A stretch of 64,000 nt of DNA from Octopus vulgaris. Taxonomy: Eukaryota. The DNA lies in NCBI GenBank assembly GCA_951406725.2, contig OX597825.1, positions 20,522,001-20,586,000 on the forward strand. Reading direction: 5' to 3'. A model generated the notes under the pieces. That model was not told the origin of the DNA. It saw only the letters and a list, made by a program, of their open reading frames with translations, and ran no database searches. The translations under genes and the position numbers were made by a program. Below, piece by piece: positions 1 through 54,057 of the stretch. Numbering within the stretch: position 1 is the first letter of the stretch; each line of letters begins with the position of its first letter.

Positions 1-59
1 ACCATCCAATCTAGAAAGCGAGTTAACGATCTTAGAATCCCGAGTCGAACAACATAACC

Positions 60-845
60 TATTTCTTTACTACCCACAGGGAGCTAAACACAGAGAGGAC
101 AAACAAGGACAGACAAACGGATTAAGTCGATTATATCGACCCCAGTGCGTAACTGGTACTTATTTAATCGACCCCGAAAGGATGAAAGGCAAAGTCGACC
201 TCGGCGGAATTTGAACTCAGAACGTAACGGCAGACGAAATACCTATTTCTTTACTACACACAGGGGGCTAAACACATAAAGGACAAACAAGGACAGACAA
301 ACGGATCAAGTCGATTACATCGACCCCAGTGCGTAAATGGTACTTAATTTATCGACCTCGAAAGGATGAAAGGCAAAGTCGACCTCGGCGGAATTTGAAC
401 TCAGAACGTAACGGCAAGCGAAATACCTATTTCTTTTACTACCCACAAGGGGCTAAACACTGAGAGGACAAACAAGGACAGACAAACGGATTAAGTCGAT
501 TACATCGACCCCAGTGCGTAAATGGTACTTAATTTATCGACCTCGAAAGGATGAAAGGCAAAGTCGACCTCGGCGGAATTTGAACTCAGAACGTAGCGGC
601 AGACGAAATACCTATTTCTTTACTACTCACAAAGGGCTAAACACAGAGAGGACAAACAAGGACAGAAAAACGGATTAAGTCGATTATATCGACCCCAATG
701 CGTAACTGGTACTTAATTTATCGACCTCGAAAGGATGAAAGGCAGAGTCGACCTCGGCGGAATTTAAACTCAGAACGTAACGGCAGAAGAAATACCGCTA
801 CGCATTTCGCCCGGCGTGCTAACGTTTCAGCCAGCTTGCCGCCTT
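60..845 (-). mobile_element. tRNA-derived SINE (family A, young tail) as one head plus four tandem ~184-bp bodies
   Basis: Minus strand reads AAGGCGGCAAGCTGGCTGAAACGTTAGCACGCCGGGCGAAATGC... with box-B-like GAGTT(C/T)AAAT and core GACTTTGCCTTTCATCCTTTCGGGGTCGAT. Body is repeated with junctions at 243/244, 427/428 and 612/613. A 16-bp TSD GTCGAACAACATAACC lies at 44-59 and 846-861. Confidence 0.92.
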
Positions 846-1233
846 GTCGAACAACATAACCACTGAGTGAAACAGCAGGAATAACAACAATAGCAATTGT
901 TTTCGTTTGTTACGCATTTCAACGAAAAAGTAACATGTAAGAATGTTTTACGGCATGTCATGTTGATAAATGAGAAACACGAAGAACGGAGACAGGTTGA
1001 GCAGTTAGATTAATAAATAATATCTCCAACTATGAGGGGGGAAAACTTGACAGAAGAATGTTAAAATTTGAGTTATATTTATTTTTTTAATATACGATAT
1101 GTAACATGGATAGTCAGAATCGTTAGAACTTTGGGCAAAATGTCATGTAGATTCAGCGTTTATTTATGGATCAATATGTTCTGCGATTAAATCTTAAACG
1201 AGTCGACTACATCTTTTATCTTTCTGAAATAGT

Positions 1234-16739: not shown

Positions 16740-17594
16740 GAAATAACAGCTCAATCTTCCTCCAAATACCAATTCCCCATACCAAAAATGTATAAAACAT
16801 TAGTACCATGGAATATACCAATTAGCCCCAAAACCGCACCACTACATATTCGCCCGGTGTGCTAGAAATAGCTGATAAGTCTCTCTCAAAATTCCATCTC
16901 ATTGTGTTTAGAAATAACAGCTCAATCTTCCTCCAAATACCAATTCCCCATACCAAAAATGTATAAAACATTAGTACCATGGAATATACCAATTAGCCCC
17001 AAAACCGCACCACTACATATCCGCCCGGTGTGCTAGAAATAGCTGATAAGTCTCTCTCAAAATTCCATCTCATTGTGTTTAGAAATAACAGCTCAATCTT
17101 CCTCCAAATACCAATTCCCCATACCAAAAATGTATAAAACATTAGTACCATGGAATATACCAATTAGCCCCAAAACCGCACCACTACATATCCGCCCGGT
17201 GTGCTAGAAATAGCTGATAAGTCTCTCTCAAAATTCCATCTCATTGTGTTTAGAAATAACAGCTCAATCTTCCTCCAAATACCAATTCCCCATACCAAAA
17301 ATGTATAAAACATTAGTACCATGGAATATACCAATTAGCCCCAAAACCGTACCACTACATATTCGCCCGGTGTGCTAGAAATAGCTGATAAGTCTCTCTC
17401 AAAATTCCATCTCATTGTGTTTAGAAATAACAGCTCAATCTTCCTCCAAATACCAATTCCCCATACCAAGAACGCATAAAACATTAGCACCATGGAATAT
17501 ACCAATTAGCCCAGCAATGGTACCACTACCTATTCGCCCGGTGTGCTAGAAATAGCTGGTAAGTCTCTCTCAAAATTACACCTCATGGTGTTTA
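16740..17594. repeat. Tandem repeat, 5 x 171 bp
   Basis: GAAATAACAGCTCAATCTTCCTCC recurs at 16740, 16911, 17082, 17253 and 17424; the fifth copy is the most diverged. Confidence 0.97.
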
Positions 17595-17610
17595 GAAAAG
17601 ATGGTATTGA

Positions 17611-17831
17611 GGCGGCGAGCTGGCAGAAACGTTAGCACGCCGGGCGAAAAGCGTAGCCGTATTTCCGCTGTTGTTACGTTCTGAGTTCAAATTCCGCCGA
17701 GGTCGACTTTGTCTTTCAGCCTTTCGGGGTCGATTAAATAAGTACCAGTTACGCACTGGGGTCGATATAATCAACTTAATCCGTTTGTTTGTCCTCTCTG
17801 TGTTTAGCCCCTTGTGGGTAGTAAAGAAATA
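17611..17831 (+). mobile_element. Family A SINE monomer, young tail
   Basis: Runs GGCGGCGAGCTGGCAGAAACG to GTAAAGAAATA; TSD GGTATTGA at 17603-17610 and 17832-17839. Confidence 0.93.
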
Positions 17832-21900: not shown

Positions 21901-22133
21901 AAGGTGGCGAGCTGGCAAAAACGTTAGCACGCCGGGCGAAATGCGTAGCCGTATTTCGTCTGCCTTTACGTTCTGAGTTCAAATTCCGCCGAGGTCGACT
22001 TTGCCTTTCATCCTTTCGGGGTCGATTAAATAAGTACCAGTTACGCACTGTGGTCGATATAATCGACTTGATCCGTTTGTTTGTCATTGTTTGTCCCCTC
22101 TGTGTTTAGCCCCTTGTGGGTAGTAAAGAAATA
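21901..22133 (+). mobile_element. Family A SINE monomer, young tail
   Basis: Full head and tail; TSD TATAATCATGCTAA at 21885-21898 and 22134-22147. Confidence 0.93.
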
Positions 22134-30862: not shown

Positions 30863-31148
30863 CACGCCTGGCTCATAAGGGCCCGGCTTCCCGGTTCCCT
30901 TGGCGTATAGGTTCCCCCACCTGGACGGAACGCCGGTCCGTCGCAGGTGAGATGCAAGATGCAGGAAGAAAGGGTGGGAGAAAGTTGTGGCGAAAGAGTC
31001 AGCAGAAGTTCGCCATTACCTTCTGCCGGAGCCGCATGGAGCTTAGGTGTTTTGCTCATAAACACACACATCGCCCGGTCTGAGATTCGAACCCGCAATC
31101 CCTCGACCGCGTGTCCACTGCTCTAACCACTAGGCCATGTGCCGCCAC
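30863..31148 (-). mobile_element. Family B type-2 SINE
   Basis: Reverse-complement match to the 21383 copy. Confidence 0.92.
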
Positions 31149-31911
31149 ACTTTCGAGAAGGGACCCATGAATAATTTCCACAAATCTCTAGCTTGACAAT
31201 GCTACCGAGAGGACATTGCCGCTTCAGGATAAACTCGACAGGGATGACCTTCCGTCGGACGCGCCTCCCCATGATGCACGTACGACGGGACCTTCCTGCA
31301 GGTTCTCGTACAATGTTTGATCATTGTTGACTTGTGAAGCGATGTCAAACAGATTCTCTCACATGTAGGACGGGTCCTTCTATCGGTTGACTAAATCTTG
31401 AAGATCGCTCCACTGTGTTTCTTTTGCTCAAGAAAGACAGTCTGGTGATAATGGCCACAGCGGTTGTATGCTGGCTGATACTGTGAGGACTGAAGACAGA
31501 CACCTTCCTTTTGGGTCGAGGCCTCATCAACTGTTTAAAATTTCATTTATAAACGAAAGTAGGTGTTGAGAGCGATGTAGTGCTCGTGCCTCAGTAAATC
31601 TTGTAGAAAGGTGGGTGAATGTAGCGAGGATTGTCCGTGTAAGTAATCCTACTCCAAGCTGGCGCGTGTAGGCTGAGGAGTAAGGAAGCGAGAGAAGCAT
31701 ATGCCACGGTACTCCTGATTAACAAAGTACCTTGGAATCTGTGGTATCACTAGGTAACCCCTGGACGGCGATTTACCCCTTATTACGCAATTTGCTAAAA
31801 TTATTTTGTTAATTGCTATTATTTTTCTGTTCACGGGTTTTCCTAATTAATCCCCCCTACCCTTTATCTGTATATTGTCCTAAACGTTTTTCGCAGCCCT
31901 TGTGGTCAACA

Positions 31912-31912
<1 letters not shown>

Positions 31913-31986
<74 letters not shown>

Positions 31987-50589: not shown

Positions 50590-51337
50590 TCCCATAATCG
50601 TTAACAAGCTGGATAAAATGCTTAATGGTATTTCCTCCAGTTTTGCGTTCTAAGTTCAAATCCGCCGAGGTCGACTTTGCCTTTCATCTTTTCGGGGTCG
50701 ATTAAATAAGTATCAGTTACGCACTGGGGTCGATGTAATCGACTTAATACCTATGTCTGTCCTTGTTTGTCCCCTCTATGTTTAACCCCTTGTGGGTAGT
50801 AAAGAAATAGGTATTTCCTCCAGCTTTGCATTCTAAGTTTAAATTCTGCTGAGGTCGACTTTGCCTTTCATCTTTTCGGGGTCGATGAAATATGCACCAG
50901 GGAAACACTGGGGTCAATGTAATCGACTAGTCCCCTTCCTCGAAATTTCAGGCCTTGAGCCTATACTAGAAAGGATCATTATTATTATTGAATCGGCGAA
51001 TTGCACACCGAACGAAATGCTAAGCAGTATTTCGTCTGTCGCTACGTTCTGAGTTCAAATTCTGCCGAGGTCGACTTTGCCTTTTATCCTTTCGGGAACG
51101 ATAAAATAAGTACCAGTTACGCACTGAGGTCGATATAATCGACTTAATCCGTTTGTCTGTCCTTGTTTGTCCTCTTTGTGTTTAGCTCCTTGTGGATAGT
51201 AAAGAAATAAGTATTTCGTCTGTCGCTACGCTCTGAGTTCAAATTCCGCCGAGGTCGACTTAGCCTTTTATCCTTTCGGTATCGATAAAATAAGTACCAG
51301 TAAAGCAGTGGGATTGATATAATCGACTAGTCCCCCA
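50590..51337 (+). mobile_element. Two older family A SINEs, each with an internal duplication that adds the young tail
   Basis: GGTATTTCCTCCAG at 50627 and 50810; AGTATTTCGTCTGTCGCTACG at 51026 and 51210. Each second copy directly follows GTAAAGAAATA. Confidence 0.9.
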
Positions 51338-53729: not shown

Positions 53730-54057
53730 TTTCTACTCTAGGCACAAGGCAACTGGTACTTAATTTATCAAACCCCGAAAGGATGAAAGACAAAGTCGAC
53801 CTCGGCGGAATTTGAACTCAGAACGTAAAGACAGACGAAATATTGCTAAGCATTCCACTAAGCGTGCTAACGTTTCTTATTTCTTTATTGCCCACAAGGG
53901 GCTAAATATACAAGGAACAAACAAGGACAGACAAAGGGATTAAGTCGAATACATCGATCCCAGTGCGTAACTGCTACTTAATTTATCGACCCCGGCAGAC
54001 GAAATACCACTAAGCACTTCGCCCGGCGCGCTAACGTTTCTGCCAGCTCACCGCCTT
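53730..54057 (-). mobile_element. Composite family A SINE: young, internally deleted copy joined to an older copy
   Basis: Minus-strand tail AATAAAGAAATA is followed by AGAAACGTTAGCACGC of a second copy. Confidence 0.8.

Follow-up and report, generated by a model that had tools for sequence, protein, structure and literature searches.

One SINE head with several bodies: probable site-specific insertion of a young Octopus vulgaris SINE into its own older relatives

The window analysed here, a stretch of 64,000 nucleotides from the Octopus vulgaris genome, opens with a minus-strand SINE array (44..861) in which a single head is followed by four bodies, with all three internal junctions at element position 50. 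Read in element sense, the array begins with a 16-bp TSD copy that starts GGTTAT (846..861), followed by the head, which comprises element positions 1–49 (49 bases; 797..845) and includes an A-box-like stretch. Body 1 (613..796) covers element positions 50–233, with a B-box-like stretch, the shared core and the family-A tail, and is followed by body 2 (428..612), body 3 (244..427), body 4 (60..243) and the 3′ TSD copy (44..59). Element positions 35–60 form the head hairpin (786..811), and the insertion site, 49/50, is the 3′ end of its loop. The bodies measure 184–185 bases each, and every junction joins AAAGAAATA to GGTATTTCG, at 613/612, 428/427 and 244/243. These coordinates, together with TSD copies that agree at 16 of 16 bases (44–59 and 846–861), bear out an earlier note on this DNA, which had described one head and four bodies joined at a single nucleotide within one 16-bp TSD. 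The note had also held that the units differ by several substitutions, and the four bodies indeed differ pairwise at 9–15 of 183 bases.

The bodies are not four independent insertions, because rare alleles are shared between them. A119 (family frequency 0.03) occurs in bodies 1–3, T140 (0.011) in bodies 2 and 3, and C214 (0.05) in bodies 3 and 4, and none of 619 other units combines A119 with T140. Body 4, which carries other alleles than bodies 1–3 at subfamily sites 127 and 130, was probably the original host. At the empty site in a related organism (E), represented by one 987-base contig with flanks that are ~8% different, the base before the array runs straight into the second TSD copy. 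This single TSD copy indicates that the TSD of the array is real and that everything between its copies arrived after the split. Contigs of organisms B and C (both flanks) and D (one flank) enter the element but do not give its number of units. A look-up of RNA records listed none for the flank, which is uninformative about expression. Most likely, the array reflects a single insertion that postdates the split from organism E, a single self-insertion, and local duplication or conversion once or twice. Downstream of the array, positions 1164–1632 of the window (L311 2164–2632) hold another high-copy repeat, as judged by contig depth.

Further copies lie elsewhere in the window. On the plus strand, a family-A unit is joined at 50809/50810 to a family-B body and tail (50596..50990), and a 5′-truncated family-A unit is joined at 51209/51210, reading AGTATTTCG, to a family-B body (51003..51328). 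The same junction, which the earlier note had located at both places, is present at each, where it connects the tail of a family-A unit with a body carrying the tail of sister family B. On the minus strand, a unit of an older subfamily with a CAA tail is joined to element position ~17, a second hotspot (53751..54057). A plus-strand family-A monomer with a short TSD starting GGTATTG occupies an off-target site (17610..17831), and five 171-bp units that are 97% alike (16740–17598) end ~10 bases before it. The decayed 3′ end of a plus-strand LINE, probably L1/Tx1-like by its motifs, has a tail like that of family A and runs into (TAG)n (31143..31913).

Family A is a high-copy, TSD-flanked SINE of 233 bp with no ORF, and its TSDs are mostly 13–17 bp long. 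By resemblance, the head is presumably of tRNA origin; ARAGORN predicted no tRNA and Rfam gave no tRNA match to the head. The likeness to A and B boxes was judged by eye against their consensus. The element presumably also resembles the MetaSINE/MESC superfamily, which has a 66-bp Meta domain after the head; a comparison with two supplementary files gave no match. Sister families B and C have the head and core (1–168) in common with family A and differ in their tails. Divergence is 3–4% in A, 6–8% in B (for the subtype that ends arrays) and ~13% in C.

Genome-wide, the family-A tail has 63,274 exact matches with a pattern that misses about a quarter, and ~75 of the first 100 matches listed continue into a SINE body (by-eye count). 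In the 2.8-Gb genome the exact junction 23-mer was found 29,914 times, versus 0 times for the reversed pattern, so the junction is not a product of chance. Tens of thousands of loci likely consist of one head and then two or more bodies, with the front end joined to an old head. We fetched ~360 loci, most of them chosen by pattern and most from contig C1; counts called unselected here therefore include only elements away from the centre of 10-kb loci. Among 135 unselected family-A ends, 58 are joined to position 50, 4 to position 17, 67 to flanking DNA and 6 to other sequence; this is a sharp peak, which the earlier note had named as support for its claim, rather than an even spread along the element. 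Unselected elements that start with a full A unit contain one, two, three or four units in 39, 35, 5 and 1 cases. Family-B tails were never followed by a position-50 body (0/291), which ties the join to the A end. By exact patterns, C bodies are found 146 times behind an A tail versus 210 times behind their own head, and B bodies 1,455 versus 534 times; after a rough correction for decay, we estimate that, among copies whose site is intact, an A tail precedes about a quarter in C and two thirds in B. B and C elements also often stand directly behind AAT/ATT-rich B or C tails as whole-element head-to-tail stacks (L221, L242, L244, L064 and others), and one locus (G000:C2:183811601-183812318) has four family-B head-and-core matches of identical listed sequence with a 196-bp period.

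Insertions that keep both heads and an inner TSD make up ~3–8% of arrays. The pattern of a host site followed by a new head gave 190 matches, some of which are head-only tandems. At 25 of 29 such nested loci the end of the new element returns to position 50, and at L131, L145 and L147 variants private to the host site recur, duplicated, on either side of the insert. L165 and L179 are short 5′-truncated inserts with a visible duplication. Unique-DNA flanks start with GGTAT in 25 of 106 cases, and the 42 off-target TSDs have T at +3 in 34 and A at +4 in 32; upstream of the nick, these 42 sites show no likeness to the SINE head.

The earlier note had placed the junction on the 3′ side of the loop of a hairpin in the head. 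This hairpin is real (DNA fold −7.8 kcal/mol, z −4.1, for the monomer at 21933–21962), the junction falling on the final base of its loop. A hairpin can form in both SINE contexts, that at the tail junction being weak (−1.8 kcal/mol). A requirement for the hairpin was not supported: of the 29 nested sites, 19 lie behind a head and the other 10 behind an A tail, a context that does not allow the head hairpin to form, and only 3 of 19 rebuilt off-target GG sites fold better than shuffled sequences (z below −2), leaving 16 of 19 with no significant hairpin. Nested and off-target insertions thus indicate that downstream sequence, not the hairpin, defines the site. A contribution of RNA-derived GG to the 3′ junction was likewise not supported, since among TSD copies that differ at +1 to +4 the GGTA letter lies downstream in 5 cases versus 8.

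Several loci show related arrangements. Family-A copies lie next to or within an oppositely oriented SINE copy at L121, L115 and L149, and one off-target site among the opposite-orientation cases is GGTAC on the reverse strand of the SINE core. Tandem arrays of only the head and TSD, with periods of 72 and 64 bp, occur at G000:C6:27514188-27514664 and G000:C10:17996023-17996508; they mirror the body arrays and arose by expansion of nested insertions.

Arrays that start with a family-A unit and end with a family-C body (A–C arrays) bear on the fate of the second head. An old head lies upstream in ~5–7 of roughly 170 arrays not selected for it and in 3 of 40 arrays ending in C, a count from which 8 of 48 loci were dropped as having no full head or upstream match. 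In 39 A–C arrays the first body is 3.9% and the last body 12.5% diverged. Perfect TSD 11-mers were found in 3 of 31 A–C arrays, 0 of 17 C monomers and 16 of 62 A monomers. In rank tests among detectable TSDs, A–C arrays differ from A monomers (p 0.004 for 11-mers, 0.04 for 13-mers) and do not differ from C monomers (p 0.5–1); the difference from A monomers in counts of perfect TSDs alone is not significant (p 0.06–0.10). The heads of these arrays carry host alleles more often than A heads do, at position 21 in 21 of 39 versus 27 of 122 (p 5e-4) and at position 38 in 14 of 39 versus 12 of 122 (p 3e-4). At position 61 the host allele is weakly enriched (5/39), at 63 and 65 it is absent, and the signal at 45 and 50 is noisy. 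The host contribution implied by these sites declines from ~0.5 to 0, much as expected if crossovers were distributed uniformly along positions 1–65. Divergence at non-diagnostic bases of 17–42 resembles A more closely than C, and the true host contribution may therefore lie below the 40–50% given by diagnostic sites.

A–C arrays likely grew in place, because their outer TSDs have decayed and their heads are mosaics of old and new. In them, the new copy likely joined the old head by homology and the second head was lost; the data fit both joining during insertion and a later deletion between tandem heads. Joining of cDNA to upstream DNA during insertion has been proposed for R2 (PMC6895275).

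Arrays that end in the younger family B (A–B arrays) suggest a second route. Their last body is more diverged than their first (0.062 vs 0.030), being older in 73 of 101 arrays and younger in 17. Their heads are of A type: G45 together with C50 occurs in 25 of 101 of them, in 18 of 65 A monomers and in none of 78 B monomers, and the host fraction is ~0 at positions 38, 45 and 50. Perfect TSD 13-mers occur in 16 of 68 A–B arrays, compared with 11 of 62 A and 1 of 31 B monomers (p 0.02); the age difference from B monomers is fragile, three versions of the test having given p 0.03, no significance, and p 0.02–0.2. With no mosaic heads and with TSDs of A age, growth in place does not by itself explain A–B arrays. 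Their all-new heads and young-looking TSDs, the latter a weak test, suggest that they were probably re-retroposed whole: transcription of a nested copy with a full new head would continue into the B body, and the transcript would be retroposed from its B tail. One multimer (L122) lies inside a single inner TSD, so multimers can be inserted as units. No sibling clusters were found among 77 B bodies, in which 4 pairs share at least 3 rare alleles versus ~4.9 expected. A few hundred or fewer equal sources are thereby excluded for A–B arrays, and ~1,000 sources are compatible with the data. A hidden, host-copied TSD at positions 50–65 was also considered as a rule and rejected, as A–B first units carry A alleles at 63 and 65 and share only 5 of 36 rare host alleles at 51–66.

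In longer arrays, some pair of units shares at least 2 rare alleles in 13 of 21 arrays with three A units (2.7% for random units) and in 11 of 13 with four or more (4.4%), and in 8 of 71 arrays with two A units (1%). In trimers, the start of the middle unit tends to be closer to the last unit and its end closer to the first, which is the pattern of unequal exchange. Together these results point to a contribution of local duplication to arrays with at least three A bodies, that at 44–861 included. Some long arrays have near-identical units, the longest with at least ~10 units among the matches listed, and at L193 (G000:C1:10398773-10400076) units alternate between two variants, which suggests expansion in dimer-sized steps. 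The tandem SINE fragment with a longer terminal unit that marks squamate sSats was found here; long homogenised arrays of their kind were not.

A candidate partner was recognized from the SINE tail, whose last 44 bases are 34/44 identical (counted from the alignment) to the end of a LINE that continues into (TATC)n. The alignment score is 68, compared with at most 62 in 500 shuffles, and the LINE ORF contains RVT_1 and zf-RVT domains. Related LINE ends (31143–31913 in the window; L184, L103, L089, L173, L119 and L240) run into (TATC)n, (TAG)n or ATT-rich DNA, and on account of these set microsatellites the lineage looks target-specific. The (TATC)n family is young, with ORF pieces 95–100% identical. 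No LINE 3′ end was found at position 50 in the fetched loci, and two search patterns, both assuming a tail like that of the SINE, gave no clear one among 8 matches or among the first 100 of 2,073 matches listed. Concentration of SINE copies at one repeat site, as in Tx1-Mar/SINEU pairs, was observed.

Subfamilies with different tails favor different sites. Position 50 is joined by 39 of 62 unselected ends with TAG tails versus 1 of 18 with CAA tails (p 2e-5), and position 17 by 13 of 78 ends with CAA tails versus 1 of 406 with TAG tails. Non-SINE flanks start with GG in 37 of 89 TAG cases versus 3 of 40 CAA cases, a few of these GG flanks being decayed bodies missed by the filter. Because the two subfamilies are identical in their last ten bases, complementarity of the tail to the site cannot alone account for the difference; either different LINE partners or different read-through extensions can. 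TATTT stands right after each junction; in a B2 construct, this motif terminated Pol III transcripts 42% of the time (PMC8466645). A role for it here is speculative, as it also occurs at 52–56 of the first unit.

We consider it probable that young family A inserts at 49/50 of older A, B and C copies, likely through LINE-driven target-primed reverse transcription combined with homology joining to the host head. Sequence-specific enzymes of an L1/Tx1-like LINE would start target-primed reverse transcription at 49/50, and the new copy would join the host's matching head by homology, leaving one head, one extra body and the host's old TSD; the second head may be avoided during insertion or deleted later. 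Two secondary routes likely contribute: read-through transcripts of nested copies would be re-retroposed whole, as head, A body and B body with a new TSD, and direct repeats, once formed, would expand by unequal exchange or slippage. The earlier note had left open a choice between repeated site-specific re-insertion of the SINE into itself and reverse transcriptase jumping or rolling-circle copying at the hairpin. Re-insertion is supported by inner TSDs starting at position 50, by GGTAT-like TSDs, and by the old TSDs and mosaic heads of A–C arrays; the shared rare alleles of longer arrays add the local component. Copying at the hairpin is not needed, given the hairpin-less sites and the 0 of 291 B tails, and the junction thus arises mainly from site-specific self-insertion.

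Template jumping within one reverse transcription event, which would copy B or A RNA to position 50 and then switch to the 3′ end of an A RNA and on to its head, perhaps helped by a read-through GGUAUUUC overlap, is compatible with the all-new heads, young-looking TSDs and missing siblings of A–B arrays, and LINE reverse transcriptases can jump templates (PMC6895275). We nevertheless regard it as unlikely, as it would need transcription of thousands of aged B copies and leaves unexplained the A–C arrays, the nested insertions with inner TSDs and the off-target motif. Far less credible is rolling-circle copying of a circular body RNA closed at the hairpin, in the manner of non-LTR retrozymes, whose units measure 170–400 nt. 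The tail GAAATA is complementary to TATTTC at 52–57, the units of long arrays are nearly identical, and one body is predicted to fold with its two ends paired, but this fold is not significant (z −0.17), and whole-unit RNA folds are not better than those of shuffled sequences. Moreover, most unselected arrays are dimers (35, with 5 trimers and 1 tetramer, beside 39 monomers), their units differ in age and family with only 8 of 71 sharing at least 2 rare alleles, arrays start with a head rather than at random phase, and an Rfam scan of positions 1–1000 (E up to 5) found no ribozyme family. For dimers, rolling-circle copying is largely refuted. It seems equally improbable that one or a few ancestral dimeric masters spread as subfamilies and were later lengthened by unequal crossover: the inserted multimer at L122 and the local duplication evident in long arrays accord with such a history, but the shared-allele count in B bodies does not exceed expectation, and the last bodies come from three families of different age. 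The earlier note had named such a dimer subfamily as a refutation of its own claim; the sibling clusters that it would leave are lacking, but unequal exchange does contribute to arrays of at least three units.

A separate question is what gives the insertion its specificity. Tentatively, it could come mainly from an RNA read-through extension that matches the host from position 50 (or 17), not from the endonuclease. Subfamilies with the same last 10 bases prefer different sites and their off-target flanks follow suit, off-target conservation is confined to the region downstream of the nick, and SINE position 50 is used, by rough arithmetic, ~50 times as often per site as generic GGTAT; R1Bm, as cited in PMC7265360, needs downstream target sequence on its RNA. 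Different sequence-specific LINE partners, however, would account for the subfamily difference just as well, the microsatellites at the ends of LINEs with related tails also vary, and the downstream TSD copy shows no GGTA preference where the copies differ at +1 to +4 (5 vs 8). It is conceivable, though on balance doubtful, that the element is a homing SINE whose RNA serves as a two-sided guide, with read-through downstream and the head upstream, and writes a 184-bp body seamlessly into older relatives.

Targeted SINE/LINE pairs, a SINE-in-SINE hotspot and SINE satellites are known; the variant described here targets its own head and usually lacks the second. The closest parallel is SINEU-3 with Tx1-Mar in crocodilians, in which a SINE likewise occupies set positions of an abundant repeat (313 of 347 copies flank Mariner-N4_AMi) and forms tandem stacks; that SINE has its target in common with Tx1-clade LINEs, and different SINEU families use different positions (PMC4494074). 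There, however, the target is a DNA transposon and tandem copies sandwich a TSD (PMC4494074), whereas the target of family A is its own head, and a second head and inner TSD are usually absent. Alu-into-Alu insertion also has a one-base hotspot for a family's own insertion, described as nested insertions (PMC2836564), compared with ~4 in 10 unselected 3′ ends at the hotspot here. Squamate sSat1–3 are tandem partial SINEs with a longer terminal unit at many loci, more homogeneous in longer arrays as here, but reach 1,000 units (PMC10702118), compared with mostly dimers here. For these satellites, unequal recombination is proposed for the first duplication and re-insertion is noted only as more probable (PMC10702118); here the fixed boundary of the first duplication is a retrotransposition target.

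For R2, cDNA homologous to DNA upstream of the nick is described as joining by strand invasion with a precise junction (PMC6895275), which by analogy may be how the second head is lost here. R2 differs in having a restriction-like endonuclease, a 28S rDNA target, and homology in a short rRNA leader rather than its own promoter (PMC6895275). Up to half of Dip, B2 and Ves copies lie in multimers, composed of full-length SINEs head to tail rather than of headless bodies at an internal site (PMC8466645). Non-LTR retrozymes (10.64898/2026.07.22.740005) also form tandem units in animal genomes, but need hammerhead ribozymes and likely spread by rolling circle, compared with no ribozyme by Rfam here. 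A survey of the open literature by title and start of abstract listed no paper on a SINE whose insertion target is its own head, with loss of the second.

These arrays give SINE-derived tandem repeats a concrete origin, in which the first duplication is made at a fixed base by targeted insertion and not by unequal recombination at random. With tens of thousands of events that can be dated, in hosts of three ages, the arrays offer a natural experiment on how 5′ junctions form in APE-type retrotransposition, which is still poorly understood, and the mosaic heads map the joining of cDNA to upstream homology. If RNA pairing sets the site, this would be a natural programmable-insertion system. If the homing reading is true, older relatives would gain a fresh promoter, with a quarter or more of old intact-site copies reached, each subfamily would be steered to the internal site of its source copies (50 or 17) in a self-reinforcing loop, and TATTT at the junction may also end the transcript. 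In this lineage, repeat annotation and SINE-based dating must treat such loci as composites of different ages.
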